Below, one piece after another: positions 7,351 to 45,557 of a stretch of DNA of 45,557 nucleotides. Position 1 is the stretch's first letter; each line of letters opens with the position of its first letter. The position numbers and the translations under genes were made by a program. This DNA is from Catajapyx aquilonaris. Taxonomy: Eukaryota. Location: positions 1 through 45,557 of the forward strand of contig JYFJ02003165.1 in the NCBI GenBank assembly GCA_000934665.2, in the 5' to 3' direction. The notes under the pieces are model-generated. The model worked only from the letters and a program-made list of their open reading frames with translations. It did not search any database and was not told where the DNA came from.

Positions 7351-8937
7351 CTACACACACCACATATCAAAAAGAACCACATTGAAAAGCCATTGCACCA
7401 TGCCAAAGAAATTGCCTCGCATCCCCCCAAAATGGTTCTAGAAAAAGAAAGGCTACACACATACTCACATTGGCTCACCTTCTGATCAATCCGGGCGAAC
7501 TTGTCAAACATGTTAGCGTAAATCTTCTTTTCCTTATCAGTCTGCTCCTTGATCTTTGCGCAGCAGGCCTGCATCTGGACTGGGACAGCCTTGTTCCCAG
7601 GCTCCAGCTTCTGGACCGCCTTTGAATACATATATTGATTAGCATCCAGCTTATTAACCCTCGAGGCAACACTTTCCGTGATATTTACATCATCCTTATT
7701 AATAAAATATTTTAAGACACCCTGACATGTACTGATGACGAAATGCGGAGCTGGCTCACCTTGAAGTCCTCCATAGCTTGCCTTGGTTCCCCAAATCCTA
7801 AGTACGCCTGCCCTCTCCTGAAAAGGCCTTTGGCATTGTCTGGTTCTATGTCCAGCGCTTTGGTGCATTCGTCCCTTGCAAGCATCCAGTCGCCCATCTT
7901 CAGGTAGCACAGGGCTTGGTTCAGATGCCCTGCAACGACCAGCGTCTTCTGTTCTGAGACACCCTCACCCTCTCCACCCTTGATTTCCGAATCTAGGAGC
8001 GACACCACCTTCTGATAGCTCTTCAATGCCAGCGCATACCTAAAGAAAACCAAGATCAATTATTATAAGCTCAATTATGAAACGCATGGTGCCATACCGC
8101 TCCTTCTGGAAGAACTTGGTTCCCTTTTCCTTGCTGATCTTAGCCTGTTGAGTCTTCTCCTCCGAGTCCATCTGCCACGTCTCCCTTGCTAGCTCAAAGT
8201 TCAACAGCTCCACCTCGTACTTCCCGTTTCCTTGCTTCCCAGTAAGAGTCAGCACTGATTTCTCCCCACGCTTGAATTTCTCAAGGGCCACCTCCACTCC
8301 AGGCGGGATACTATGCTCGGAGCCTTCTCCAAGAGCAAACTCAAACTCCTGGGACTTGCACTCAGAGTCTCCTAAGGGACCCTCCATGCGGATCTTGACA
8401 GAAGCTCCCTCGTTAGGACAGCTGTAGCCTGTCCCTTCAACCACCTGCTGGCGGAAAATGGATCCATCCTTGTCGGGACTGAGATCCTCCGGCTTCCAAT
8501 CTAGCAGCTCCACTTCAAACACCAGGGTGGCATTGGGCGGTATCTTCGGGGAAGACCCGACCTCCCCATAGGCATACTCCGAACCGCAGGTCAGAACCGC
8601 CAACTCGCCTCGACGCATCGTAGCCACTCCCATATCCCATGCCTTTATCACATTGCCTGAAATGTTTTGGTTGTCAGTATGCGCAACCTTCCTTCTGTTG
8701 TAACGTACCTCTTCCGAGCTGGAATTCGAATGGTGTGCCCCTATCCCGGCTGGAGTCAAACACCGTCCCGTTGGTCAGTGTTCCGACGTAGTGGACAAAC
8801 ACGGTGTCTCCCTCTCCGGGACGCTCCTCTCCCTCCCCTTCCCTCTTCACCAGTTTGAGCACCCCTCCGTCCTTGGTCGGAGTCACATCCACCTGCTGTC
8901 CCTCCTCCTGTTCCTTCACCTCGGTCTCAGACGTCAT
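7177..8937 (-). CDS. FKBP4: Peptidyl-prolyl cis-trans isomerase FKBP4/FKBP52 (FKBP59-like Hsp90 co-chaperone), 5 coding exons: join complement(8709-8937, 8098-8656, 7760-8039, 7479-7619, 7177-7350), 460 aa
   Basis: FK1 domain (DGGVLK, VHYVGTL, FDSSRDR, VIKAWDMGVATM, YAYG, KIPPNATLVFEVEL), FK2 domain, three TPRs (KEKGT, HLNQALC, KGLFRRG), EKKIYANMFDKFA motif and arthropod-type tail PDVLSGTLGEWG. All four GT-AG introns (52, 58, 140, 128 nt) keep frame; total 1383 nt. Confidence 0.95.
7479..7619 (-). CDS. FKBP4: FKBP4 coding exon 4
   Basis: Acceptor ttcaaag| (AAG type), AVQKLEPGNKA...FARIDQK, donor AAG|gtgagc. Confidence 0.85.
7760..8039 (-). CDS. FKBP4: FKBP4 coding exon 3 (TPR)
   Basis: Acceptor ttttctttag|, YALALKSY...AMEDFK, donor AAG|gtgagc. 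Confidence 0.92.
8098..8656 (-). CDS. FKBP4: FKBP4 coding exon 2
   Basis: Acceptor tttcag|, GNVIKAWD...KFFQKE, donor CG|gtatgg, phase 2. Confidence 0.92.
8709..8937 (-). CDS. FKBP4: FKBP4 coding exon 1
   Basis: ATG 8937-8935, MTSETEVK...FEFQLGR, donor AG|gtacgt, phase 1. Confidence 0.9.
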
Positions 8938-9342: not shown

Positions 9343-9469
9343 AGATTGTAAGGGCGTGAAGGGTCAAATGTTGCTGTACCTTCAGGAGAGTACGGGTAGG
9401 GGGCAGAAGTATGCAGATGTTTACAAAAAGTGCCGGTAAAATATGGATCCATTGATTGGGTTTTCACAC

Positions 9470-9638
<169 letters not shown>

Positions 9639-9662
9639 CGTGAAAATTAATCATAAACACAA

Positions 9663-9991
9663 TGGGTGGAATTTTCGTCCCACTGCTATAGTTATACTGC
9701 TAATTTAGCAGTAGGCCTACTATTGCCAACACTGGTAGGCTTGACTTTTATTACAGTTACACTTCATTGACTCGATGGGCATGTGAAAATAGCAAAACTA
9801 TGGGATGAAATTTTCGTCCCACTGCTATATAGTTAACTGCTAACTTAGCAGAGCCAGTGTTGGCAATGGTACTGCTAAGTTAGCAGTAACTAGCAGCAAG
9901 CTAGCAGTAGGACGAAAATTCCACCCAATGTTATATGCTATTTTCACATGACCATTGAGTCGCAATGAAGTATGCTGCAATAAAAGTCAGC
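9663..9991. mobile_element. Nested palindromic MITE cluster: half copy of family A (9663-9737), then family B arms (9739-9798, 9930-9991) enclosing a full family A copy (9801-9927)
   Basis: B arms gcttgacttttattacag...catgtgaaaatagca and tgctattttcacatg...ctgcaataaaagtcagc are inverted; A copies match 2499-2596. Confidence 0.75.
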
Positions 9992-15461: not shown

Positions 15462-15868
15462 TCAGTCGCGATCGAGCCGCCGACCAAGCAGGACGTACCA
15501 CTTCTCGACTCTTCAACAGTGCGTGTGTGTGTGTTGGGTATCCCCCCCACAGGAGCCTGCTATAGGGAAAGGGTGCGTGCAGGGCTTTTGCAGGGGCTGC
15601 GCATCATCCGGATACTTGCAGAGGAGTAGCGCCGGCTCAGATTTTGTGACACGCCCAGAGGGGAACGGCCTGGGTGTGGTGCTGGGAGCCAGGATTTTTT
15701 GACAAGGGGCAAGGACCGGATCCTGTCTTCTTTTTCTTTTTAACTCGACTTCTTCCCCCCCATCTCCAACACCTCGAGACTTTGCTCAGTGCTATCCTTA
15801 TTGGAGTGTGAATCCAACCCACCCTGAAGCTGAGGACACTGCTCCTGAGAAGATCCCACACGATTTTG
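15462..15868 (+). other. Candidate promoter and non-coding first exon of a long plus-strand gene
   Basis: CpG/GC-rich patch, initiator-like TCAGTC at 15462, consensus donor TG|GTAAGT at 15869; no convincing ORF. Confidence 0.45.
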
Positions 15869-18800
15869 GTAAGTACATTATGACACACTCCCGTCAGTTT
15901 TAAAAAAATATGTAAGATATATTTATAATATTAAAAAAGTGCAAATTCGGTTGATCTGTTGAGGACAGATTGTTTGGAAGTTATTAGGGTGCGGAAATGG
16001 GTCGTTTGGGGTGGCTGTGGGACGTGATGAGCTGGGATCTGATCACTTTCACTGCATTTTAATGATTAGGACCAGTTTTTTTTTAAAGTTTTGGGAGGCG
16101 GCTGCTTTTTTTTTATTGGGTGTTTTGACTGACAGGTTGGGGATGAAATGGGGGGTTAAGCCGGAATCCTTTTGTGACTTTATGGAGGGGGCGATATGCC
16201 GAACTGTGATGACCCTCTTAATAATGTTGGTGCCACTGATTCAAGCAGCTGTAATTGATGATTAATAAATTGTTTTAACTGTTCTAATGCTCAAGTTGTG
16301 CACTGTGGTGAAAGCATATAGTTGGGCTGGGCAGAAGTGCGTCACTATTGACATTCCTGTCGCTTAATGCATTTCGGGATAAAATAGCATAGATAAACGG
16401 GGCCGCCTTTGATGGATTATATTGCGGGACATGTTTTTCAAAAAAAATAAAAAATCAATGCGGCCGGGGTGTATTGGTTGATTAGAATCTCTTCAAAAAG
16501 CGCAAGTGGTACAGGATAATTCTAGCGGGATAATTGTAGCATTTGATCCGTCTCTCGTGATGAAATATACCTTTTTTTTGCACACGTGTAAGCAGTGAAT
16601 GTGCTGATAACGAATATATTATATGGTCAATTTAACACATGCAGAAAGTATGTAATATGCAGAAAGCTCGTGTTAGCTTATAGGGGGACGGCATACATTT
16701 TTTTTTTTTCATCTGCTATGAATAATGCAAATTTCCCGAGTTTTCAGCTTCACTCGCTTTTTCTCAGCATTAAAACGTTCCTCCCTCTATTAAACATGCA
16801 CATATGCATTATGTTTTTTTTAAAGTAGGGGGGGCCATGTAAAATTCGCTGATGAGGTACATAACTGCTACAACTGTATGAATGCCGTTAAGGACACAAC
16901 AGATGGTGTTTGGTAGACGCTCGACAACAAGTGATACAAAACATGCCTCACTCGATAATGAGGACAGTGTGCGCTTATTAATTATTAGCCAATTATTACA
17001 AAGCGTTAAAATAATTAGACACATCATCTGTGAATGTTGCTGATGTATATGTTCGTCTCATTAGTTGTTTTTTTTTCGCTGACAAAACCATGCACACGAA
17101 CACGAGCTGCGTGACATCTCCGCTCAATAACAGTGCAGTGTTGTAAAACTGCGTAACAAAGTAGGCCTACCGCAGTCATTAAGTTATGCTGATGAGTTTT
17201 ATGGTTAGCCTCAACCGCAGGACTGGGGGCATTGTACACAGGATGTGAGGCAATCAGATATTTAGAATAACCCACTCAAGATTAATAAAAAGAGTGACAA
17301 TTTATCAAGTCGCGACCAGGGGGGTTACGCCCTGTTGTCATTCTGGTCGTATCTCACGGTCATTTAATTAATTACATTATGCTATAAAAATAATTTTTAC
17401 TGCATCAACAATGGATGTGACAAATTGCAGAAGTTTGAACCTGCAAGGAATGCAAACTAATTTGGGTTTGTGACTCACATTCGACATCATGCTTTGCCAA
17501 TTTGATAGGCTGAGGAAATGAACTCTGTAGAATGATGCCTGTGGGTGATGCAGGTGCAGGTCTTAAGATGAATCACGCCCCTCGATTCCTATCTATAATA
17601 CTTGCACCCAATTGAAACGGGGCGGGGGGGATTTCTTATAGTACAAAAAAGTCTCGAAAAAAAGGTGTAGTTACTGCGAATTGTTCATTTTCATGCGCAC
17701 GTCGCTTCAGAGAATTGCTGTGAGGTGACTAGAAAAGGGTTGGTACATTTGGCAGTTTGATCACAGTATCTAACCAAGCAGTGACCAGTAATAACTATAC
17801 CTGATGTGCAAGGTGGAAAAAAATATTAAATTACAGGTTTACACAGATGCGCAGAATTCAGCCTTCACCCATAACCACTGACATTTTTAAAATGACACTA
17901 ACGGGGTTAATGCCAGTTGGTTTTTAAAAATCCGGTCACATTCATGTGAGTGATGTCATGGAGCGAGAAAGTGCTCATAAACTCAATATGGCTAATTATT
18001 GCCACCAGCTGGTGATGTAATTTGTTATCCCCGCACCAGAGTATTCACCTTGAAAAGGGCTTGGGAGGAAAGGCATACTTCGTGCAGTGTACTGTCCAAA
18101 TAGTTCAAAATAGTGGCCGTTGTAGGTAACAATTATGAATATTGTATCGTGTAATTTTTTGGCCATTTTATTGCATATTCATATATGGTTACAGACGTAA
18201 TTATAAGGAAACAATAATATATCACATGATGGGGGCACACCTGTGTAAATGGAATGTAGTTCTTTCTCCATAAGGAATCCCGCCATCATTTGGATTCGAG
18301 GTGGAAAAAAATTGTATTCGGTGACATTCAATTAATTTTTTGGCGAACCCGCAGTGAAGGCTCCTACATGGTAGGTCCCAAGGATTGTGAGGAGAAATGT
18401 TAAAAAGGCCGCTGCTTCAAGGACCCCTCAGTCCAGCACTTGAAACCTTCCAAGGCATTAGTCACGCCAACCTGGTTATCACCTTGCCCTGTACGCCGCC
18501 TCGATTTTGTTTTCATTTGGACCTGGCAATAAAAGCTCAGATTCAATTAGCCTCAAAATTTCATTACAAAATGGTCTTAGCAGCTAATGTGCACTTAGGT
18601 GTGTAAGTTATATGTTTTTTTTTAATATTTTCATTTGAATACTAATGCCGTCTAAGTAAATAAACAGGCAAAGTACGAATCATGCTGGTTTCAAAATGTA
18701 ATCAGGTCAAGCATTTTGGCGTGGTTTGATTTCGCCCACGCCAACACCCTTTCTAGTCGAGGAGGCGAAAAATCCTAGTGAATATTTTGTCACTCTCACT

Positions 18801-19301: not shown

Positions 19302-19973
19302 GAAAAAATAGCAAATTGCGCTCGCTGCGGCTCAAAATAGCATATCGTTATCGCTGCGACTTGAAATAGCATTTTGTGATCGCTGCTATTTTACACATCG
19401 CGTCGCCGCTACCTAAATAGCAAATTGAGCTCAAAATAGCGTATTTGGTCGCTGCTACTTGAAACATCATTTTGTGATTTCTGCTATCTAAATCACAGCC
19501 ATTGTTGCTGCTACTTAAAATAGCATATTGCGCTCGCTGCGGCTTAAAATAGCGTATTTGGTCACCGCTACTTAGAATAGCATTTTGTGATAGCAGCTAT
19601 TCTTGAAAATGACAGCTATTGTCGCTGCTACTTCAAATAGCGCCGTGTGGTCGCTGCTACTCACGAGTTACTCGTAAATAGCAAATTGTACTCGCTGATA
19701 TTTTTCAAAAATCACAGCCGTTGTTGCTGCTACTTAAAATAGCATATTGCGCTCGCTGCTACTTGGAGTAGTATTTTGCAATCGCAGCTATTTTTAAAAA
19801 TCGCAGCTATTGTCGCTGCTACTTGAAATAGCGCATTGTGGTCGCTGCTACTCATTTAAATAGCAAATTGCTCTCGCTGATATTTTTCAAAAATCGCAGT
19901 CTATTCCTGCTTAAAATAGCATATTGCGCTCGCTGCGTCTTAAAATAGCGTTTTGTGATCGCTGCTATTTTTC
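19302..19973. repeat. Minisatellite of about 22 diverged 29-bp self-complementary units (AAATAGC-N-GCTGCTACTT)
   Basis: Units such as aaatagcatattgcgctcgctgctacttg; array starts gaaaaaatagc and ends gctatttttc. Confidence 0.9.
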
Positions 19974-22900: not shown

Positions 22901-25900
22901 TAAACAAAATTAAGTGAACATGCACATTCCAAGACGATTAAACATGTAAGGGTCCGATTTTATTAACTAAGTGAGCTCCATAAAACCGGTCCTCGAATGA
23001 GATTTTCCCAAAGGAGGGCAGAATTGTGGCACGCCACAATGCGCAGGAACTATCCCGAAAAATGAGGATGCGTCGCACGTACTGCGCAGCCTCAATTAGG
23101 AAATAATCTGCGCAATACTGCAGTAAAATGTAATGAATATTTTTTATTTATTCGATAAGCGCATAATATTCAACGGGAAATTTTGTAAGGAGTTGTCTTC
23201 ACGTCTTTGAGAGGAAAGTAGGAGAGGCGAAACTAGTCACCCATCACCGTGACGTTAAGTATGAACCTAAATCACCATCTTCCTGCCTTCAATAGACATC
23301 TTGTTACGTCACGGCCGCATTATCCTGTAATTTGCCTGAAATTGAATAGCCTTGAAGGAGCGGTGGGAGATCTATCATTATTTGTCTCGTTATTTGGCTT
23401 AATTGTTGTTGAACTTATAAGTAAGGGTTAAAGTCGAATTATCTTCCCAAAGTTTTAGTGTATAGCCTTCAACTATCTTTTTAACAGTGCCGTAAATAAC
23501 TGGCAGGCTTTTGGCCTCATTTGTTCCTCACGAAAACAATATAATGACAGGTGGAAAGAACAAAAAAAAAAAAAAGTCATTTAAGCTTATCTATGAACAC
23601 CTTGAAACCTGTAGGGGGAAAATTGGTTTTTGCCTTTTTCTGTACATTCAAGGTGCTCACTTTGCATTTGACGTAATGTTGTAGTACCAATGTTAGTAAA
23701 CCGTGTGGAAAGCGCTAAATTCTTGTTTGTGTGGGAATGAGAACGAGTTATACGTACATTAAAAAAAAAGTGTATAAGGAAGTCATCCGCATGTATATTC
23801 ATTTTGCGCAAGTCGAGACATTGAGGTCATTGAAAGTGAGTGCGGCCTTGAAGGAATAAATTGAGCTCGAAGCTATCTGTTAACGATGGTCACCGCTTTT
23901 TTTTCATTTTCAGATTATTATTAGAGAGTGATCTAGCAGTATATGGATATTGTATAGATAAAAGCGAGAAAAGTGAATTGCTTTAGGGGTGGTCCTAACA
24001 GCTCCCATGTCTCGGTGTGGTCGTGTACTCTGGTTGGACATACCAGTCGTGCCAATACGATACAGTATAGGAAAATGGGGCCACGGCCGCAACTGGAGGC
24101 ATGAATTGTAAATCGGCCTTTTTGCAAATACTTAAAGAATGTGACATGTGTGAAAATATAGAGGTCAATGCTGGTCAAGCATTTTTGCAGAGATTTAAAT
24201 GTGATTTGGTTACAGCAGGTGGGAAATATTCCCAGATTTTATTAGCAGCTTATGGACCGTGGGATTTATTCCCATTATATTCAATCAAAATTAGGTCTAC
24301 CAAATAGAAATTAGCTCTACATTTCATTTATTAGCTTCAACCTTGAGTTCCGTAATTTATACACGGTACTCTCATGACGTGGGGTATCATCTTGCAGGCG
24401 GGTTGATGATGATGAGAAGAGAAAGTACACTGTGCATTATATCCAATGGTCATCTAACAGGAACATATGACCGCACAATACCGGTGCTGGGTATAAATAG
24501 CGCTTCCGTAGCATCGAAAGCAGTTACATGTGTATTCCTCAACATGTCCGCTGGAAAAATTTCATTGAAATTTTTTTTTGGTGTGAATATAGCGGTGCGT
24601 AATGCGTAACAGTACCGCACCACCCTTTTATGTAATGGGGTCGATTACTTAGGGCGGCCTGGTGTAATGCGGCTTGTTTTCTAGGGCGTGAGAAGAAACC
24701 TAAGGAGAGTGTTGCACTTTTTTTTTGTGTGTGGTGTTGGTTAGTTGCAGCGGATGCATCGTGTTGCACCAGCCAGTTTGAGGCCATCAATTATAACGTC
24801 TCGGTGTTTTGGACCCATTTTTTGACTAGTCGTGATTTTCTTCATATAAACTAAAGAGACAACGCCCCCACCAGTTTGCTCATTACAAGTTTTCACTGCG
24901 GGGTATTGGACTGGATGCGGTAACGGGTTTGCTTGCACCCATCCCATCCCCGACTAATTATGCATCATTACGGACACGAACTATGCGGCTGGTGTCCTGG
25001 GTGTTTTTGGTATGACCCCCGCAGGGTGTGTATTTACACCTGCGAGTATCAGCCGTCGGATTTATTACGCGAGGTTGTGAAATGTGATACGTTTCTTTCA
25101 TGCCCCACGGCCGGTGTTTGATACTGATATGTAAGGTGTCTGTTTTCATTCAGACGGTTATTTTTTCACTAGCAGGTAACCCGTTCTTCCTAGTTGAATA
25201 AAATGGACACGAAATTGGCATTAAATGAGTATAAGATGGGAAAACAAGCAAACAATACCCAACCATTAGTTCAACACCAACCTGGACAAACAAACAAACA
25301 TTGCCTTTTATACAATTATTTTGTTTTAAAAAAATTTGCTCAGTAAGTGAACCGGATTTGATATATGCAATTGGAGCATTTCCTCAGGATGTAGGAGGGT
25401 CAAGGAAATGGGTTTTGGGTGACAGTAGTTGTCAGCAACATGCCGAATCAAAAGCTGATCGTGCGATACGGCCTGGTCTGACCGGGCGTTACTATCCGAT
25501 CAGCTTGAAAGTGAGAGTTCAGGATTCCGCGCTGCCATTTTTATTGCTCCAGACTGTAGCCTGTGGGGCCCTTCCCATTGTGTATGGTCCTGGAGTCTGG
25601 CTGATTTTTAAAAGGAGTGACTAACCTGTACATACAGGGTGGTACACTTCTTCAGACACTCCCAAATTCAACTTGAAGCATGATTTTAATGAGAAAATTA
25701 GTGCGCGGGAAGTAGTGTACCACCCTGTATGTTACTCCCGGGTCTATGAACGGTTGTCGGCATCGATTGGGAAGCAAAAGCAGGTCCCCTGTTTTCATCT
25801 CCTGCTGCCAGGTGGGATGAGCACTGGCAGGGCCTGGGAGCCCAGAAGAGAAAGAGGGGGCGGGGGTGGTGGGAATTGAGTGGGGGGGGGCAGGTGAGGG

Positions 25901-27134: not shown

Positions 27135-30100
27135 GTAGGTGGTAAAGAGAAGAGGGGTGGTTGGACCACGGCCGCTGACCCCTACTCTTCTGCTGCTTCT
27201 TCGTCTTCGGCTACTCCTCATAGGTGTAGGTAGGTTAGAGGGTTGGGCTCCATCACCACTGCAACCCACGCCAGCCACACATTGATGGGAGCTCGGGCCC
27301 ATTGAACCCTCACCATGGTAAAAAGAAAGAGGAATAACAACCACAAAAAAAATGATATATAGAAGAGAGTATGGAGCATATAGGGATGAATTGGTGACGC
27401 GATCCAGGCCTCCCTCGGCAGGTATTTGCATACAATCGAGGGGGCCAGCAGCCAAGGACACCTGTAGGGTGGGACGTGATGAAAATGGGTTACTTACGCA
27501 CTTGCTACATGTCAGTTGTGGCAATGCCAGCTAGGAATTGAAGCAAGGTGCCAATAGGTGAGGGCCAATCAAAAAGTCTGACACCTTAATTTTTTCATAC
27601 CATTCATAGTCGGTTAGCCAACTGCATAACCAGAACTTGATTCATATTAATTAATTCATATTTAAAAACATATGTTTGGAAAGTGTATGATTTTCGTGGG
27701 GCTTTCTGCACATATGAATGTTTCTCAAGTGTATAGTCTGCACGAGCCAGGGATATATGTGGCCATCAGATTGACTTAAATTGTGCGTTAAGTAGACAGT
27801 TACCTGGCAGGTATGGCGTGGTTTGCTCTGCCTAAATGAGCCGTTGCCCAAGAGCGGCTAAAATATAATTGCTGTTTATTTGACATTTTGCAGTTGGTAT
27901 TATTATTAGGGGGAATGAAAGGAGGAAGTGTAGTGTCAGCTGGATGAGTGACACAAATAGGTGCGATAAAAGGCGGTCGGATGACAAACAAAAGTGACAT
28001 ATCGTGCTTGGATGACCGTCAGTTGCAATGGACCTGTTATGTAATATTGGTGATTGGACACCGGAAGTAATGGCGCCATGTCACGATAATAATATTCTGG
28101 CAATAAGCCGCTCAAATTTTTTGGAAAATCACTTTAACCTACCTATGCTAATTTCAATAAATTTAGTTGAACAGAAGTGATTCAGGGCTGGTTTTTTTTT
28201 ACATTTTAAAAAGTGATAGACGTATCTGCCATTATTTTAATTCAGAAAAAAATGGGAGATGTAACCTGTTGAAACTATCACTTTTACTGCCACTGGATGT
28301 CTTGTATGTAATGGCTTAAAATCCTTCCGACATGCGGCGGATTCACATTCTTCGATAAAAGATAGGCTACTGGGCTTCAATCCTGTTTCATTTTTTTGTT
28401 GTTGTATATATTCCCCCTCCGCATTTTTAAACCCCCCCCCCCCTTTTTTTTCTCTACCTCCAACGTATTACCGGTATTAAGAATATCTAGAGGCCAGGGC
28501 CCCATGGCTGTAAAATACCGGTCATCATTACCAACTTCCTCGTTGGTAAACACATCGTGTGGTCAAGTCAATGCTCTATTACGTCACAACTTCCCCAGCT
28601 TACAAACAGTTTGAAAAAGAAGAAGAATTTTTTTTATTCCCATTCTTTTTTTTCTTTGCATGTCTTATAAGTTGGCGGGAATAAAATAGTGGGGTCCTGA
28701 GCACGTTCTTTTCCCTCCAGAATTGGCCTGTCCTGCGACTTTGACAAGAGGTTCTCAAATGCAAGACAAGCCTGACTGGTCCGAGCAAAGTAACGATTTC
28801 GTTCGAGAAGAAGATTGCTCATGGTCCACTTAGGATTCTTGCCCAACAGGACCATATACTGTAGGTGTCGTCTTGGGGGCTCAAGATACGCCTTTTTTTT
28901 GGTGGTCGGCATATATTTTGCGATGGTAAATGTGCGTAGGGGGGGCTTTCCCCAGAATAAAAAGGATATTGCCACAATGAACATGTTGTACATGCGAAAT
29001 AGCCTTTTTATGTGTGAAGCCAGCGTGTGGTGTAATTTGCTCATAGGTCGCGACAATAATATTTTCTGCAAATTTGCATGCCGGAACTCACTCTGTACAG
29101 ACCAGTCTTTGTATGTGGGCGAATTACCAATATTGTTCATGTGACTTATGACTAACCGTCGATATAAAGGCGTGCATTGTGCAAAAACTAATGGAATGAA
29201 GGAGGTGGCCTCGTCCTTGCGTGGCCCCACCTATAAATTAGCAGGCTATTCATTAGCAGGTGTGCAACTGGACAAACAATGCTACTCAAAAAGCCCGGTC
29301 CTTTAATTGTCTTGAGAGCCTGGGACAAAAAGGGGGAGCTTAAGACAACGTGAATCGGCACAGTCTGCACTTCACATGCTGATACTGTAGTTGGTGTAGT
29401 GTACTGAAGCAATATTCTATACGAATAATTGCGAATTAATTTGCAAAAATATAACTTGCAATGTTTAGCTTATGACAGTTTGTAATGTCACATTTTGTCG
29501 ATTTAAAGCTAGAAAATTACTAGACGAATGTGTAAAAATTTTAAACGAGTTTGTGATCGGATGTTTTCGAATGTAGCAAGAGTATAAATTGCTGAAACTG
29601 GCACTGAAATTAATTACGGGAGCATTTCGAGTCACTAATTAAGCGAAATAATTTTTTCCCTTCACGTTAGTTACCTCTTTAACAAACAAGTCAGAGATCC
29701 GCTACCTTTTGTAACAAAAAAAATTTTCAGAGCTGGAATTTGGCAAAACAATCGTGGGCTTCGCTCGGTTTTTCTAGAGCACCGCACGCGATATTTAAAT
29801 GTATGACGTGCACTGACCAATCGAAATCTCTGCGCATTCCGGGTAATTATAAGTGCACTTTTTTCCCCCCTTAACCCCCTCCAACTCATTCTATGTACAG
29901 TTAGATTCCGTGATAACGGCCTCGTTTTATGAATCTAGCTGAAGGTAAAAGAAAAAGAGGAATGGGGCGACTTTATGGTCTGAATGTATGGAGCCCTATA
30001 GTCGTGATCTCATGAAATGATTGCAGGCTCACGTAAGATTTAAAAAAAGCAAGTATCTCCTTTCCTCGAAACGAAAGTGAAAACACCTCAAGGAATTTCC

Positions 30101-33100
30101 TGCAGTGTTATACACACACACTTTGGATCGATTGATCACCTTACGTGCTAACCACGTCGATATCCCCCATTTTTATCGGTTTCATGCTGGGTACATACAC
30201 CTCGCCTGCCAAACATTTGACCAATGAACTTCCAACAGAATGAAAATTGCTACCTAGGCTTACATCCTGTTTTTTTTGTATGTCGTAAGATGAGTTTTCA
30301 CAGAGGGTATTCCCCTGCTCAATTAAAAATCCGGTGGGGGTGTTGATTATACGTTCGGTGTGATCCATGTTTATTAGGGTTCGATTGTGGCAAGGACAGT
30401 ATGATCCTTTCTGTTGATTAAGGTTTCATTTTAGCCGAAGGATGCGGAGTAAATCAGCGAAACAAAACGCATGGGCAAGTTATGTGGCATCGAAAAAATA
30501 TGATGTATTATAATAGGAGTAATAAATTATCGATACGTGACTGTAGATATCAGTTTAGATAATTATAATGTGGTATATCGAATTCAGTGTTCAACTCCAT
30601 GGTCAAACACTGAGCTACCTGTTATTTTTGAATGTTTTTTATATTATGGGTCTTTTGCTCTAAAAATCGAATTGAATGATTTTAAAGAAATATATTAATC
30701 CAATGGTGCCATGAAACTCAAAAATTATTTGTAGCAATTACATTTTCTCTCCCTGAAAAAGGGCCACCAGGCATGTGCCCTTTGAGGATCATATTCTTCG
30801 CTCAATTTTGACCATCTGGGCCTTTGGCTCCAAGAATCGACGAGTAATTTTAAAGAGAAATATTAATTTAAAAATTAAGGAAATTAAGCCAAATTTAGAA
30901 TTTCAGAATGTATGGCAGTGATTATTATCTATCTGAAAACTGGTCACCCATTGAGTATAATATTAATGCTTAGCTCAATTTTGACCAAAATTTTGTTCAG
31001 CATTTTAGATGTACATATGAGAGAGAGAAAACTGATCAAAAAAATATGAATAAATTCGAACGTGTTGATCAGAACTCGATCGTCCCACGTCCTCTGGAAC
31101 ATCATTACCTCCCGGAGCTCTTTCGCAAGTTCCATAATAACCAAAGTTATAATCAGTTTGCAGAACTCAATTTTTAACACATTAAAGGCCCTGGTAACAA
31201 ATATTCACTACACGACCTACGCTCTGTATATAAACTTTTGCCAATATTTTTTAAACCCATGGTCCCTGTTAACTGTGAACAGTTTTCAATAACTTCCAAA
31301 ACTTTCGGGGACCTGGTAGGATTTAAGTTAATTTAGGAAAGTCCCCCCCCCCCCCNCCCCACTGTTTTAGGTGGAGGTGACCACTCTTCTTTACCATTCC
31401 CGAGTTTGTGCCACGAATATTTTCGTTCTTTTTTGGAGTCTCCTGGACCCCAAGGGAGAAGCAAGCCACGGGGTCTTTCCAACCCCCAATTGGGGCATAA
31501 ATTTTGCAGCGGAAGCTTTTGATAAAGCCCCGCTTCATTTCCCGGTTTGCATACCGAAAATTGCGTGGATGATGGAGGCAGGGACATAGAGGTGGTGGGG
31601 GAGGTTTGCAAAAAAAAATGTAGAATGGAAAAAGTGTATATTCCAACTGCTAGTTTTTGGACGTTAAATTTTACTTGCTCTGCCATTTTTTTATACTCTG
31701 GGGCTTGCAAACTCGGTTATCGTTTGTTAGAGGCTCAGGAGAGTCATGCATAATTGTGTTATTGGCCAGGAATATGGCGTACAAAATGAGGTAGCTACAG
31801 TAGAAAGCATACCTCGGGAGTAAATTAAATATAAATAAATAAACACTGCATTTTGCGAATGGTATTTTAATAACATATTGTATTCTAATTCTGGGCAAAC
31901 TTCCAAGCGAATCCAGCCAGGATCATTTAACATCATGAGAAACACTTGTCTGGTTCTAATAAATTACCTGGTTGCACAACATGATGGATGCCGCCGCATG
32001 CCGAATTCCCCACGTAGCTTTTTCTTATCTACACTTGCGATCCTGTAGGTCTGACAAGACCAGTGTCCTTGCATCTTCTTAGAGAATAAAAAAAAGGCCA
32101 AAAGAAAAGGAGAGTGCGTAAGATGAGAGATGGAAATTACACCCAATTTATTCACGCCACGCTTCTCGAATTGCTGTGCTATCAAGTTTTTTTTTGCGTG
32201 GTTGTTAAGATGGGCAGGTTTTCTTAGTAATGTGATAAGTCGGTTATGCATGTCGATATGTGATACTGATCTGAAACTAAACCCCCTTTTTTTGCGCTCG
32301 GTCAAGTAGACAATGCGTTTTAGCTTGCTACACAGATCTCAATCGTTGCCCCCCGAAGGAATCGTAAAGCCTCGAGGGGCTTAACATGAATTGTTTCATG
32401 CATGAAAGCGAAGAGTTGAAGTGAGAGTGCATGTAAGTATTGTGCAACCTGATTTACGCCCAAGTGGCGTGCATATTTTTGAGTCATAAAAAGTCAAATG
32501 ACGACTTAAGGAGCAAATATTCGTAATTGGGCACTAAGTGGGCGGTTCCAAGTTCATTTTTTTAAACACTTATGCTAGAAACGGATGTTGAAGATTAGAC
32601 ATGCGCACGATAGCTGAATAGTGACATAATTAGCTGAGGGTAATAAAAAGTGGGAAGTTTCATATAAGATCGATTAATTTTTGTATCAATTTATTGGCGT
32701 GAAAAATAATCACACTCTGAAAGTATATGCACGTGCCATTAGCTTATTAGGGTCACACTTTATAATACCAATGTCTTAATTTATGACTATTAGTCACGTT
32801 TATTGTTGTATAACCCTGCTCTACTGTGCAGCATACAAAAAATGGACAATTTTGTTTTTATCTCTACATGAAATGTAAAGAAAATTGTGCACTTCCTCCG
32901 CCATATTTGTAGGGCATTATTCAGATATTTATTCCCTCTAAAAGTCAAAATGGTGTGTAAGGCGTCAAATACTGTAAATAAACGAACAGCATGTTCAGAC
33001 ACATTTCTCCTCAAAAGGAGCCATGTTGAGTCCGATTCCAACAAGTGGTGTTTCCAAGTGCGTGACGGTGTCGAGTGTGTGTGTGTGTGAGAAAAAAACA

Positions 33101-33970: not shown

Positions 33971-34221
33971 ATGATAGGTGAGACGGGGCTTTTGGGACCC
34001 AAGGTTGGTGTTTTTCCCAGGGATGGACCAGCCCTCCTAAGTAGTCGGCGGAGGGTCAGCGCTCCGGAAACTATCCAGGCGTTATTTGCATACGTGGCAC
34101 CTTCAGGCGGGGGAAGGTTTGGTTACGATATTCAGGATAGAAGAGGCGCATATTTCTCCGGGAAGAAAAACCAGACTGGAGAGACCCCAGCAATTTGCGA
34201 GCCATTCCTTGGTGTTTTGGT
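33971..34221 (+). CDS. Candidate alternative first coding exon (MIGETG...RRRVSAPET...FLGVL), phase 2
   Basis: GC-rich 83-codon open frame ending at donor GT|GTGAGT (34222); contains an RRxS motif. Confidence 0.3.
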
Positions 34222-36209: not shown

Positions 36210-36412
36210 ATGGAGGTAAGTGACCCTCAGATCTCGTGAAGGGCGACCGGTAGGATTATATACCGCATTAACAAGCTGAGCAAGCAAGTCTCCCGATCCG
36301 CATCCCAAATTCAAATTTTCTCTCTCTAGTCGAGGGATGCTGGAGTTGGGTACACACACATGCCATCTGGATGCATGACCAGCTCAGGTGTGAAGGTCTT
36401 CCTGGTTGTCAG
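36210..36412 (+). CDS. Candidate two-exon alternative N-terminus join(36210-36215, 36330-36412): MESRDAGVGYTHMPSGCMTSSGVKVFLVV, phase 2
   Basis: Consensus donor GAG|GTAAGT (36216), acceptor ttttctctctctag (36329), donor CAG|GTGAGC (36413); frame stays open. Confidence 0.4.
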
Positions 36413-39400
36413 GTGAGCTCAGCGGGAGGGAAGGTGGAGAGACCTGGAGGAATTTCACTAACTAGTTGCCTGTGGTGCATGTATTTTCTTTTTTTGGTAT
36501 GGTGATGCTGGGCTCTATGGTGTTGCATAATTGTTGGGAGCTCGTGAGTTTGAAGTCCCAATTGTGTAAGCGTTCACAGTTAGAGAGAAGGGAGTATAGC
36601 TTAGAAGATTGCAGGGTTCGTATGTATATTTATCTGAACGTGAGAATGAAAGGAATGCACACATAAGTAGAATGAGAGACCAATATTTTGGGTGTCAGGG
36701 TGGTTCAAACACATTTTTGGTGCAAGATGAGTCGAATCCGCTTAATTGCATAGTCCTCCGCTTAATCGCATAATCCTGCCAAAAAATGCGTTTATCCGGA
36801 TTTTCCCGTGTGCACTTATAGTGATGCCCAATAATTAGAATAAGCTAAAACTAGTCAGATATCCCCTCTTGGATGTTGGTCTCGTAATTACTGACACATA
36901 ATTTTAACAAAGTTCAATGATTTGTTGCTGTGGAATTTTTGCATAATTTCGTGCACTCATTCTGTGCATGTAACATGCAATGTAACTACCGCCTTGCACC
37001 TTACCAGCCGTTTGGAGCGCCCTTCCATGAGAAATTAGCATACTGGCTGCTAATAACACTTTATCGCATTTTAGTCAAAATGCCTCGGGGTCGCATGAAA
37101 ATGCAACCTAAAAGAGAAACATGCATAGCTAAAAAGGCAGGCAAAATGCAGTTATGCAAATGTTGTGTACAGCCCAAAAAATGTTTTACCTGATAGAATC
37201 CTGCAAGGTTTGAAGTTTCAGATAACGATGATTCTATTGCTGACATTGTTCCCAAAGTTGCTTTGTTGGAAGCTTGCCACGAGTTATGACGTGAGAGTTA
37301 TAGCAGAAAAATTGGCCCCTCTGTTGCACGTGCGACCTCGTATTGCGAAAAAAAATGTGCGAAATTTTGAAACTCTGCCAGAGGAAAAATGTCAGATGAA
37401 ATGCATTTCGAAGTATTTATCCAATCGTGACATGCCCATGTGTAGATCACGACGAAAGAGGAGAGAACACGCATGTCTTCATTTTCTCACCAAGAGAGGA
37501 GGCAAAAAAACCAACGATAAGAAAGGTCACTCGCTTTAACCCTAAAAGGTGTAGAGGCAATAAATCATCGGAAACATACCTTTAAGAAAGTAAAATACTG
37601 GACTTCAGCAACCTTCAACTCACCCTGACATAACCTCGTTTATATTATGAAATTGCTCCCAACCTAATACCATAAAAGTGTTGTAATAATTTTTCCTCAA
37701 CTCGTTTGTTTTGATTTTGCTACTACTTAGCAGTAGCAAAAACCTATCATAAAACCCACTGCCCTTTGCCATCACAAAAGCGAGGGCAAATGAAGGTTAC
37801 GCCCCTTCTGTATTATTTTCATAAGTTTCAGGGATGAATTGGATGGTTAAAATGACATAGCTAGAGCCTTGTGCTCACAATGCTGCTGATTACAATCTTG
37901 AAGCAGTTTGTATTCTATTCAGCGATAGAACAAGGAGCGTCCGCTTCCCTGGTAATCAATTTGCTCTCATAATAGCCAATTAGGTAATAAAACGAGGTCA
38001 GTAATTTGAAGATGCTCATCATGGTAGTCTTTAGCTTCTGTAGACAGGCACTCGCTCAGAAAATGTCAAAATTTTTGAACGGCCAACTTGTTATCTTCAT
38101 TAGCCAGAGCTGGTAATATATAGGCTGTCGTCAGGCTCTTTTTTTAAAAAGGGTTAATGCCTAAGGGTGGTTTAAGCCAAAGTAAATTTTTTATCAACTG
38201 TAACCTGTATGGATTTTTGATACTATGATGTGCCTGGAGCCTGCTGAAAAATTGTAGGGTTGAGCCTAATTGTTTTACTGAACAATGTATGTAACCTGCT
38301 GTATGGAGTTTTGCCCTGATTGTTGCTTTAGGCGTGTAAAATATTTGATCAAATTATCTCCAGGTTCAGAGCTTCTGGGCTAACATTTAATCACGCAACC
38401 TGTGAGAAGTTTATACAGTAGTTAGCCATTTTTCAAATCCATCATTTTTACACCCTTCCGCGGCTGTAGCAGGATGAGATCATCGTTAAGGGAAACTAAT
38501 TATCCTTGTCCACCAATTGATACGGCGAAGGTCGAAAAGAAAAAGTGTTGTGATGATGCGATCAAGGGTATTTCCTTCTCTTCTTATTGTGGGTCATTCG
38601 TTAAGGTTGCGAGTGACAAGTAGCCAGGTGTGATGGCGGTAGTGGAGCATGCACAGATTTTCTTTTGAGGAGATGCAGAATGAGAAAGCGTTTTTAATGG
38701 TATGGCCAACAGTCACGACTTGTGTCGCGACAACTGGTGGCTGTTTTCGTTTGTCGCGATTGTTCACAATAGACGTTACAAAGTGGGGAGAAAAAAAATC
38801 ACTGAATTATTAAAATCGCATGTTGCATTCACTGCATTGTGACAAGTCACATCCCAGAAAGGTGAAGGCTGAAATTATAGGGCTGAATCTGAAAATATTA
38901 TGTCGAATGCAGCAGTGATTTTTTTTTAAACTGCTACTGCTAGTCACTGCTATTTTGAGCAGTGGTCAGTCGCAGTTTATTTATGGAAACTGTGGTTGGC
39001 CACTTTGTTTTCTACCAGCCATTGCTTAATTGCTTCTGGTTAATTCCAACTACAATGCCATATCCGTTGCGAAATGATTTTGGTCCGAAATACGAAGTTG
39101 TGCGCGTCTGGTCCGGAGGCATAATTTCCCATCACGAGCCCATAATTTAAGTGCTGGCTGGCTTCCTCTTTCAACGTGGCATTTAGCAGTAAGCCTCCAA
39201 CCTTGAGCTGTAATAACAGGTGGAGGAAAATACAAAAATAGGGATTGGAGAGAAGCAGGCAGAGGCCCCCCCCTCGAGCAGCTAACTCTACTTTGGGGAA
39301 GGTTTTGTGAGACAACAACAACTGATGCCGTGAGAGGAAATGAATGGTAGCGGAACAATGCTCGTTTGCATAATGGGTCTGACTTAAGCTGATTTTGTGC

Positions 39401-42400: not shown

Positions 42401-42649
42401 TCCTCTACACGCGTCGTTTCAATGAATAATGTGGTTCACACTATGCGCAAAAAAAAACTATTATATGAAATGGCTTTCATTTCTTATTGTGCATGAATCA
42501 CGTTGAATTCAAACGTGATCGAGGCCAAGGTGTCGGTACCATGCTGGTATAAGATGCGTTTGTCAGTCTATTGAGAATGCATAATCACGGAGACACGGAG
42601 AGTGGACACCAATAATGAACAATGATATTTAAATATGGTGTACTTATCA

Positions 42650-42714
42650 TCCCTTTTCTCTCTCTTTCTAGGTAAGTGACATCATCCTAAAAATTGGTGG
42701 AAAAAAAGGTAGGC
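42650..42714 (+). promoter_or_regulatory. Recursive splice site (ratchet point) with cryptic 37-nt RP-exon
   Basis: tcccttttctctctctttctAG|GTAAGT (AG 42670-42671), second donor AAG|GTAGGC at 42709. Confidence 0.65.
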
Positions 42715-44151
42715 TGTCTTCTTGGTATTCACTGGGAAAGCTGAGTATTTGGGACAGGATGTTTTCACCCATTGGAAACTACAGAGCTACAGAAACTAGC
42801 AGTTATCTTTGATTTTTTAAAAAACGTGCTAGTATTATCTTGTTTGTTGTTGTGCTTTTGCTGAGCACCCCCTGGGATGGTCGATCTTGGATTTATTTGG
42901 CCTCGGGGCAGAAACGTGAGATCTTCCGAAGAGACGGCCACGTCACAGGATGCCAACCCTTTTTGTTGCAGCCTGAGGGGGTCTCCTTGGCGGCACCAAT
43001 TGAATCAGATATTTTCTTCTCCCAGGAGTGGTCACAATTCTAGCTGCTGCATTATTGGATTTCTAGTGTGTAGATCAGTATTCATCTAGCGTACCCAGCA
43101 AAATCACAATGCATTCTAAAGCTATATCTGGCTTATAGTGTGCTACTTTTTTATGACAAGTTGGCTTATGGAAACTAGAGAGTTTGGATTGCAAAGCCTG
43201 AGATTAATGTCCGTATGATGATGTAGGCAAACTTGCAAAATAGAGTCATTAAATTTGTAATGGAACCGATGGTTTTTCTGGCCATAAGTCAAGGCGACAG
43301 CGGATTCGAATTATAGCTGTGTATGTAACCAGTTGAAAAATTGCGAAAATTAAAGTACGACGTTGCATTGACGTCATTTGGCCTCATCAAAAAATATTGA
43401 TCTGCCAACCATAACAATGGAGCTTTGCACTACAGGGGTTAGTATTACACTGCAGGCTACACAATCGGCTAGTAATGTACACAACCCTGAGTGACGGCCT
43501 TTTTTATCCCATGAACTTGAAATTGACAGTAATTGACGGGGGCCGGACGGGTTAATCACGAATAGCTCGAAATAATTGTTATTGAACCAACCTACGGCCC
43601 TGGCTCGTTTCATCCAAACACTAGTAGCACCCCATGTAAGCACCCCCAAAATTTTTGAAAACATACAACTGGAGGCCTCCGTTTAGTCCGTCTGTCAGAC
43701 AAGCCTCACGAAACACATGGCTGTCATCGAGTTGAGTTATGGACGCCGTTAGGCGCCACTTTCACCTCAGTCACCACTCAATTTTTTATTACTTTTTTTT
43801 AAAAGTTCCTTTGGAGCCCACCCGACTAAGGTCCCCATTTTGAGAACGCCTTTTACGTAATCTCCTCCCAGTGTATCTGATGTCAGTGGGAGGACCCAGG
43901 CGACACACACGCCATGTGTGTGTGCATGAACGCACGAGACTTTCACTAGGTGTAATCAACGCGAAATAGGACGCGCGACCAGTGTATTTTGATGCCCCTG
44001 GACATTAGTATGATCGGACAGGTGACATGACCGGATACTGCACTATCATTGTAGTGAACGGTATAAATTGTGCCACATACTGATATGAAGGTGCACGTAT
44101 TTGTCCGGATTTTCCTATAGAGTTAAGTCGCACTCCATCATTCTGTACTTT

Positions 44152-44233
44152 TCAGTCCGGATAATCGCTACTAAAAACAAGTGCGCTAGTGAGATAGCCT
44201 CAGGCTAGTCTTCTTCTTCCATCATTCGCTCGG
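44152..44233 (+). other. Candidate short non-coding first exon
   Basis: TCAGTC at 44152, donor CGG|GTGAGT at 44234, GC-rich downstream patch; no ATG. Confidence 0.25.
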
Positions 44234-44689
44234 GTGAGTGCTCCCTTTGGAAGCTGCCACTAAAAGGATGATGATCCTAATAGTTGGCAGAGCAGAAGCA
44301 GCCCCAGCTTCAGAGACTTTGCTTCGGAGGGGGAGAGAGAGAGTGTGTCGGCGAACTCGGGAGTTGGCACAGGGGCCTGGGGTCGATATTGCAGCACCAT
44401 ATTACAAGTTAGAGGGCGTAGTGGCGTCTGCCCACACGCCACGCCTACTCCTGGTGCTCTCAGAGCTCGATCACTTTTCCCCTTTTCCAACCTTTTTCAC
44501 CTCCGTGGGGTTCACCGAGAACGAGCTCTTAGTTGCCTGGGGGACATCTGAGGTTGAAAATCGCGGTTTCTGATGGAAATAGCAGTTTAGTATTAATTCC
44601 GCGATAAAAATAACCGTTATTAATAGCAGCTATTTTGTTCAAATCACCGCAATTTTTGAACTTTTTCCTACTTTTGCAGGCAGATCACA

Positions 44690-45557
44690 GTTATTTTTAA
44701 AAGCAGTACCAATGATAGCTGTGGGTCGAATATCACTTTTTGTCCACCTTTAACGGCTACTTTTTCATACCAATCGCAATTATTTAAAAAAGCAGTAGCG
44801 ATGATAGCTGTGGGTGGAAAGCAAAGTCACTTTTTGTCCACCCTTAACCGCTACTTTTGTATACAAATGAAGTTATTTTAAAAAGCAGTAGCAATGTTAG
44901 CTGTGGGTCGAAAATAACTTTTTGTCCACTTTAACCGCTACTTTTTATACCAATCGCAGTTATTGTTAAAAGCAGTAGCAATGATAGCTGTGGGTCGAAA
45001 ATCACTTTTTGTCCACCTTTAACGGCTACTTTTTCATACCAATCGCAATTATTTTTAAAAAGCAGTAGCAATGATAGCGGTGGGTGGAAAGTCACTGTTT
45101 GTCTACCCCTGACCGCTAGTTTTGCATACAAACCGCAGTTATTTTTAAAAGCAGTAGCAATGATAGCTGTGGGTCGAAAATCACTTTTTATCCACCCTTA
45201 ACCGCTCCTTTTGTATACAAATAGCAGTTATTTTAAAAAGCAGTAGCAATGATAGCTGTGGGTCGAATATCACTTTTTGTCCACCTTTAACGGCTACTTT
45301 TTCATACCAATCGCAATTATTTAAAAAAGCAGTAGCAATGATAGCTGTGGGTGGAAAGCAAAGTCACTTTTTGTCCACCCTTAACCGCTACTTTTGTATA
45401 CAAATGAAGTTATTTTAAAAAGCAGTAGCAATGTTAGCTGTGGGTCGAAAATAACTTTTTGTCCACTTTAACCGCTACTTTTTCATACCAATCGCAGTTA
45501 TTTTTAAAAGCAGTAGCAATGATAGCTGTGGGTCGAAAATCACTTTTTGTCCACCTT
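44690..45557. repeat. Tandem satellite, about 89-bp monomer (87-93), more than 9 copies, running off the window end
   Basis: AGCAGT anchors at 44702, 44791, 44884, 44971, 45061, 45150, 45239, 45328, 45421, 45509. Confidence 0.97.

Follow-up and report, generated by a model that had tools for sequence, protein, structure and literature searches.

The plus strand of the window, by which we mean the whole 45,557-nt stretch of DNA analysed here, carries at 42650-42714 a motif with the layout of a recursive splice site. Our best explanation is that 42671|42672 may be a used Drosophila-type recursive splice site within a long intron of an arthropod-like gene on the plus strand. We hold this reading tentatively, at a little short of an even chance, with accidental resemblance as its main competitor.

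Architecture of the candidate site

On direct reading of the plus strand, a tract of 20 pyrimidines out of 20 (tcccttttctctctctttct, 42650..42669) runs into the core AG|GTAAGT (42670..42677), in which the AG at 42670-71 is a putative recursive acceptor and the GTAAGT at 42672-77 the donor that splicing would recreate. The junction lies at 42671|42672, in the context ...tttctAG|GTAAGT, and T occupies 42666 and 42667, positions -6 and -5 of the candidate acceptor. Just upstream is a candidate branch-point region, gtACTTATca (42640..42649), whose A at 42646 within ACTTATC stands at -26 to the acceptor junction; this assignment is by motif only. Downstream on the same strand, a putative RS-exon donor, AAG|GTAGGC (42706..42714, GT at 42709-10), would close a putative cryptic RS-exon of 37 nt (42672..42708), whose length is not a multiple of three and which has stops in two of its three frames. 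Under a heuristic, approximate matrix this downstream donor is the weaker of the two, scoring 8.0 bits against 11.1 bits for the ratchet GTAAGT, and its GT at 42709 is the sole GT above 3 bits within 230 nt downstream.

The features on which the sequence-only reading was built are all present: the 20-nt pyrimidine tract, the TAG and the GTAAGT directly after it, and the second donor AAG|GTAGGC 37 nt further on. At the level of motifs that reading appears sound, with its juxtaposed acceptor and donor, TT at -5/-6, branch-point candidate and short RS-exon ended by a downstream donor, and the label of a "textbook" recursive site seems fair for the sequence as such.

ACTTAT(C) comes close to being the reverse complement of GTAAGT. 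The predicted fold pairs the two and loops out the pyrimidine tract (42640-42680), and in that fold removal of the upstream intron would free the paired GTAAGT donor. The pairing is probably a coincidence, since the local fold is no stabler than those of shuffled sequences.

The candidate resembles fly ratchet points

Fly ratchet points are described by Duff et al. as AG|GT sites with a pyrimidine tract stronger than usual and high conservation; TT occupies -5/-6 in 196 of 197 of them, and their branch points fall mostly at -36 to -21. The candidate is like them in its strong AG|GT acceptor/donor, its TT at -5/-6 and its GTAAGT donor, and its A at -26, identified by motif only, falls in the same range. 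Host introns in that study span 11-133 kb and the removed segments 2.6-63.6 kb, and only 6% of fly introns longer than 11 kb are recursive. The segments of 6-27 kb that would run from the hypothetical upstream donors to the candidate lie inside the fly range of removed segments.

The resemblance extends to the downstream exon. In the consulted parts of Joseph & Lai (2021), the cryptic RS-exon is short (~50 nt) and is ended by a downstream donor, which loses out to the ratchet donor so that the exon is skipped; the number of intronic ratchet points is put at more than 500 per fly genome. The consulted part of Blazquez (2018) places an additional 5' splice site fewer than 100 nt downstream of most RS sites in flies. 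Set against these accounts, the candidate is like fly RS-exons in its out-of-frame 37 nt and in its weaker donor less than 100 nt downstream (8.0 against 11.1 bits), but its 37 nt fall short of the quoted ~50 nt. In Table S1 of Pai et al. (2018), which covers verified fly recursive sites, AGGTAAGT appears in 37 motif cells, TAGGTAAGT in 8 and TTCTAGGTAAGT in 2; the rows inspected closely resemble the 42671|42672 site, and look-alikes among them have scores of ~0.90-0.95. The setting differs from that of Drosophila ratchet points, as the host is arthropod-like but not a fly and shows gene-body CpG depletion. Work by Burnette in 2005 and by Joseph in 2018 is said to have described Drosophila intronic ratchet points with cryptic RS-exons.

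In the paper library searched, recursive splicing is not documented for the likely clade of the host: of the papers listed for recursive splicing together with Daphnia or Anopheles, none names the process or the animal in its title or abstract, and in PMC7793246 the phrase "recursive splicing" occurs in the reference list only.

The motif is an outlier within the window

All AG|GT sites were scored with acceptor-plus-donor log-odds matrices made from approximate splice-site frequencies that are not species-specific. The 42671|42672 site tops the 332 AG|GT sites on both strands at 22.5 bits, with the runner-up at 14.7, a lead of 7.8 bits in summed acceptor and donor log-odds. In the chance model, acceptor scores were taken from the real distribution over all AGs of the window, and the six bases after each AG were described by a first-order Markov model; it predicts about 0.003 (0.0034) sites of at least 22.5 bits for the window, a density over both strands of 0.075 per Mb. 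The score outlier and the low chance expectation together place the motif far beyond chance for this window. Only 5.7% of random plus-strand positions are followed at 25-100 nt by a donor of at least 8 bits, a figure that is somewhat generous because threshold and range were chosen with the observed values in view.

Simpler counts were also made. The pattern Y12-N-Y-AG-GTRAG has one exact match in the window, and 20 of 20 upstream pyrimidines are found at 0.044% of plus-strand positions. The heuristic acceptor score of the candidate, 11.4, ranks third among all plus-strand AG sites. Pyrimidine runs of at least 15 nt number 20 on the plus and 17 on the minus strand of the 45.6 kb. No second copy of the surrounding 1.8 kb was found within the window, and a reading of the site as part of a repeat or transposon copy was dropped for want of one. 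The exact 28-mer around the site had no match in metagenome contigs.

The plus strand of the window has two copies of AGGTAAGT, at 36214 and 42670, and the minus strand none. The two sites, 36214-36224 and 42670-42680, have the 11-mer AGGTAAGTGAC in common. The copy at 36214 is preceded by ATGGAG, has no pyrimidine tract and is a plain strong donor. It lies 200 nt upstream of the donor CAG|GTGAGC at 36413, which closes a possible 81-nt exon whose acceptor is ttttctctctctag| at 36331|36332.

Gene context of the candidate

The only recognised gene in the window is an FKBP4/FKBP59-like gene on the minus strand (7479..8937), with two FKBP_C domains and TPR. Its exons gave the only credible matches when all 148 stop-to-stop ORFs of at least 70 aa were compared with Pfam. 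The introns of this gene are short, 43-130 nt (about 43, 50 and 130 nt, placed by tblastn with two homologues), and a further donor at 7480 points to one or more additional exons downstream. Its best FKBP4/FKBP59 matches are from arthropods (barnacles, branchiopods, decapods and insects) at 50-57% identity. By these matches the host is judged arthropod-like, and at identities of only 50-57% none of the proteins in the database comes from a close relative.

Just upstream of the FKBP gene, at 9471-9629, is a perfect compound microsatellite, (TCA)19 (TAT)21 (TTG)13. It gave rise to spurious poly-His/poly-Ile ORF matches in Pfam, and the matches at 9400-9705, which are translated poly-His/Ile microsatellite, were accordingly taken as chance. 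Beyond it, stop-to-stop ORFs of at least 70 aa between 9.7 and 45.5 kb matched no Pfam family save for one weak, chance-level match to TackOD1 (24071-24304), which was set aside. The longest minus-strand ORF in 9.5-45.5 kb, of 198 aa (28637-29230), had no homologue at E<=0.001 among 1.84 billion representatives and was dropped as a gene.

By Pfam, then, no coding sequence is recognised anywhere in the 36 kb between 9.5 and 45.5 kb. A developmental gene with a long regulatory intron would account for this stretch, and intergenic DNA would do so equally well. If the stretch is intronic, then together with the short introns of the FKBP gene it would match the mixture of short and long introns seen in flies. 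The CpG observed/expected ratio is 0.45-0.56 over 1.5-9 kb, which takes in the FKBP gene body, against 0.62-0.93 over 10-45 kb. That the ratio changes near the FKBP promoter suggests a mosaic pattern of gene-body methylation, with the FKBP gene methylated and the following 36 kb less so.

The sequence-only reading had named four upstream donors, at 15869, 27135, 34222 and 36413, that might be joined to 42672. All four are real motif matches, but the ORFs that go with them belong to no recognised Pfam family. Plus-strand transcription, the long intron and the use of these four donors by exons are conjecture. One hypothetical first exon can be drawn on the plus strand at 15462..15868, from an Inr+DPE-like match (15462-15495) to the donor TTG|GTAAGT at 15869, 405 nt downstream of that match. 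The Inr+DPE pattern has three matches in the window against 3.1 expected, which is statistically unremarkable.

A possible further plus-strand first exon, at motif level, lies downstream of the candidate site (44060-44240), where GGTATAAATTG, a TATA-like sequence, precedes the donor CGG|GTGAGT at 44235 by ~170 nt. The final 870 bases of the window are filled by a satellite (44684-45557) that runs off its end, with an 89-bp unit, higher-order periods of 359 and 448 bp and about 85% matches. A separate 29-bp tandem repeat forms three blocks at 19305-19967 (19.3-20.0 kb). Single Ns at 31356, 33824 and 42305 stand inside G/C homopolymer runs and are probably assembly or polishing uncertainties.

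Strand asymmetry

Across most of 10-39 kb the plus strand has an excess of G over C and a slight excess of T over A. In mammalian introns, the sense strand is skewed in the same two directions. Donor-like motifs are also unevenly distributed: in 9.5-44.7 kb (9500-44680) the plus-to-minus counts are 15:1 for GTAAGT and 38:11 for GTAAG. For GTAAGT, dinucleotide shuffles predict 9.2 on the plus and 6.1 on the minus strand, against the 15 and 1 observed. The flanks of the GTAAGT copies in this interval all differ, and the copies form no repeat family. AATAAA is symmetric (35:35) and uninformative on strand.

The GTAAGT asymmetry was at one point counted in support of plus-strand transcription. This was withdrawn, as Farlow et al. 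(2011) found consensus 5' splice motifs to be depleted on the sense strand of introns, which points the opposite way; read literally, the asymmetry then speaks against the plus-strand model. The depletion reported by Farlow et al. (2011) was mainly in short introns, and long introns showed little asymmetry of these motifs. The strand signals are thus ambiguous: they conflict with one another and settle nothing. Separately, a strong excess of G over C and of T over A on the plus strand at 1-6 kb may belong to another transcription unit.

A proposed mechanism and the competition between donors

In the mechanism we propose, every step of which we infer, the host gene would have its downstream exons beyond the window. 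The strong acceptor (branch point near 42646, 20-nt tract and TAG) and the 42709 donor would together specify a 37-nt cryptic exon by exon definition, and an upstream exon would be joined to 42672. Joining would recreate a strong donor, xxx|GTAAGT, able to outcompete the weaker donor at 42709. The next step would then remove the 37 nt together with the remaining intron and leave no trace in the mRNA. If the recreated donor were weak, the 37-nt exon would be retained and would bring a frame shift or a stop.

The frame check agrees with the earlier suggestion that inclusion after a phase-2 upstream exon would produce an immediate stop, the junction reading xxG-TAA. After a phase-1 exon the reading is K and then TGA; in phase 0 the 37 nt are open, but the frame is shifted. 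The immediate phase-2 stop is not specific to this locus, since any exon that starts with GTAAGT shares it. The poison-exon property thus appears to be partly generic to the motif, and the idea of a promoter filter follows the published model of recursive splicing. On our analysis, the promoter-dependent filter would amount to a restatement of the splice-donor competition model. Both that competition and the frame-breaking inclusion of cryptic RS-exons are presented as established in the consulted parts of Joseph & Lai (2021) and Blazquez (2018).

We scored the donor that each candidate upstream end would recreate, using the heuristic matrix and treating the exons as hypothetical. Ends at 15868, 27134 and 34221 give 9.3, 9.1 and 6.7 bits, and ends at 36215 and 36412 give 11.6 and 12.8 bits. 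For four of the five ends (9.1-12.8 bits) the reconstituted donor exceeds the 8.0 bits of the RS-exon donor. The sole loser is the end at 34221 (GGT|GTAAGT, 6.7 bits), where inclusion is favoured. ATG-started ORFs that are open to the donors at 27135 and 34222 end in phase 2, with 29 and 83 codons respectively, and no Pfam family was found for either.

A model by Sibley from 2015 reportedly links RS-exon inclusion to alternative or cryptic promoters, and the promoter-dependent filter of the sequence-only reading would be much the same model. Our search for literature joining recursive splicing with cryptic promoters found no paper. The most elaborate form of the idea would have fly-type recursive splicing act as a promoter-selective switch in a non-drosophilid, probably crustacean-like arthropod with methylated gene bodies: the 37-nt exon would be kept, and read as G-TAA, in transcripts that begin with the hypothetical first exon whose end is GGT at 34221, and skipped in those from other starts. 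Taken jointly, we regard this combination as very unlikely.

Alternative explanations

The most serious alternative is chance, in which AGGTAAGT has come by accident to stand next to a common kind of low-complexity CT-rich run, the DNA being either not transcribed at all or transcribed on the minus strand only, and the motif playing no part in splicing. We judge this a substantial possibility, if also one that falls clearly short of even. Pyrimidine runs of at least 15 nt are frequent on both strands, and at 0.075 per Mb a gigabase would still contain tens of accidental sites with an equal score; the candidate was picked by eye out of a very large scan. Pfam recognised no plus-strand gene in the window, and the CpG ratio of 0.62-0.93 over 10-45 kb, set against 0.45-0.56 in the FKBP body, is compatible with intergenic DNA. 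The depletion of GTAAGT and GTAAG on the minus strand would also fit sense-strand purging on that strand, as described by Farlow et al. (2011). Chance sits less easily with the 7.8-bit lead within the window, with the further presence of TT at -5/-6 and a branch-point-like A at -26, and with a downstream donor at a distance typical of published sites, which has a probability of ~0.06. The density of real sites in flies (more than 500 per genome, from the part of the literature consulted) is likewise many-fold above the chance density. A different account is that 42672 begins an ordinary or alternative exon, whether a 37-nt micro-exon, a 5'UTR exon or an expressed RS-exon like Ubx mI/mII. The strong acceptor with a donor 37 nt on makes a complete exon-definition unit, and frame 0 is open across the 37 nt. 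In the consulted parts of Blazquez (2018), exons are said to start with GT more often than with any other dinucleotide, and RS-exon features are credited to thousands of annotated exons in vertebrates; those of Joseph & Lai (2021) count fewer than 50 expressed RS-exons in flies. Such an exon is nevertheless unlikely here: 37 nt is not a multiple of three, two of three frames hold stops, no protein family is attached to the region by Pfam, and the ratchet donor beats the exon's own donor for four of the five candidate upstream ends, so that skipping is predicted under the competition model.

We give very little credence to another kind of RNA element, either a small RNA gene of spliced-leader or snRNA-like type or a decoy pseudo-exon that delays splicing of the host intron. 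The donor is followed ~20 nt on by AAAAATTGG, which, compared with the Sm-site consensus, is faintly like an Sm-site arrangement, and the predicted fold allows ACTTAT to base-pair with the GTAAGT donor. Against this, an Rfam scan of the whole window at gathering thresholds returned no matches, the fold of 42630-42760 is no stabler than shuffles (z = -0.05; 90 of 200 fold as well), and the element is single-copy within the window. With no Rfam match and that z value, the structured-RNA reading was rejected.

Discussion

How far a used recursive splice site should be preferred to chance turns on how common such sites are in the host. The fly genome is about 140 Mb. With more than 500 sites in that ~140 Mb, the fly density of ratchet points would be a few per Mb. 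Perhaps a third to half of the fly sites have motifs as good as the candidate, judging by the scores of look-alike rows in the fly table. The chance density falls several-fold below 0.075 per Mb once the downstream donor is counted. If the host has a fly-like density of recursive splicing, the odds favour a real site; if it has a large genome and vertebrate-like sparsity (about 10 definitive sites, in the part of the literature consulted), chance wins. The strand signals conflict and plus-strand transcription is conjectural. We keep the used site as a tentative first choice, and chance as the rather less probable explanation.

The proposed behaviour also has parallels outside flies. In the consulted parts of Joseph & Lai (2021) and Blazquez (2018), vertebrate RS-sites use exon definition in their first step, as proposed for the candidate, and in vertebrate RS-exons the reconstituted RS-5'ss competes with the RS-exon 5'ss and inclusion breaks the frame, again as proposed here. 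The same parts put definitive, fully suppressed intronic sites in vertebrates at few (about 9-10), most vertebrate RS-exons being annotated and EJC-protected. The Ubx micro-exons mI and mII are short exons that start with a functional donor inside a very long intron, and the candidate is similar to them in motif only. They are 51 nt long, frame-preserving, coding and deeply conserved, whereas the candidate has 37 nt and is out of frame.

If true, the finding would be an incremental result and no surprise, the mechanism being known already in flies and vertebrates. Use of the 42671|42672 site would extend fly-type zero-nucleotide recursive splicing with a cryptic RS-exon to an arthropod lineage far from Drosophila. 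It would also imply that the motif rules, namely TT at -5/-6, GTAAGT and a downstream decoy donor, are old, portable and predictive from sequence alone.
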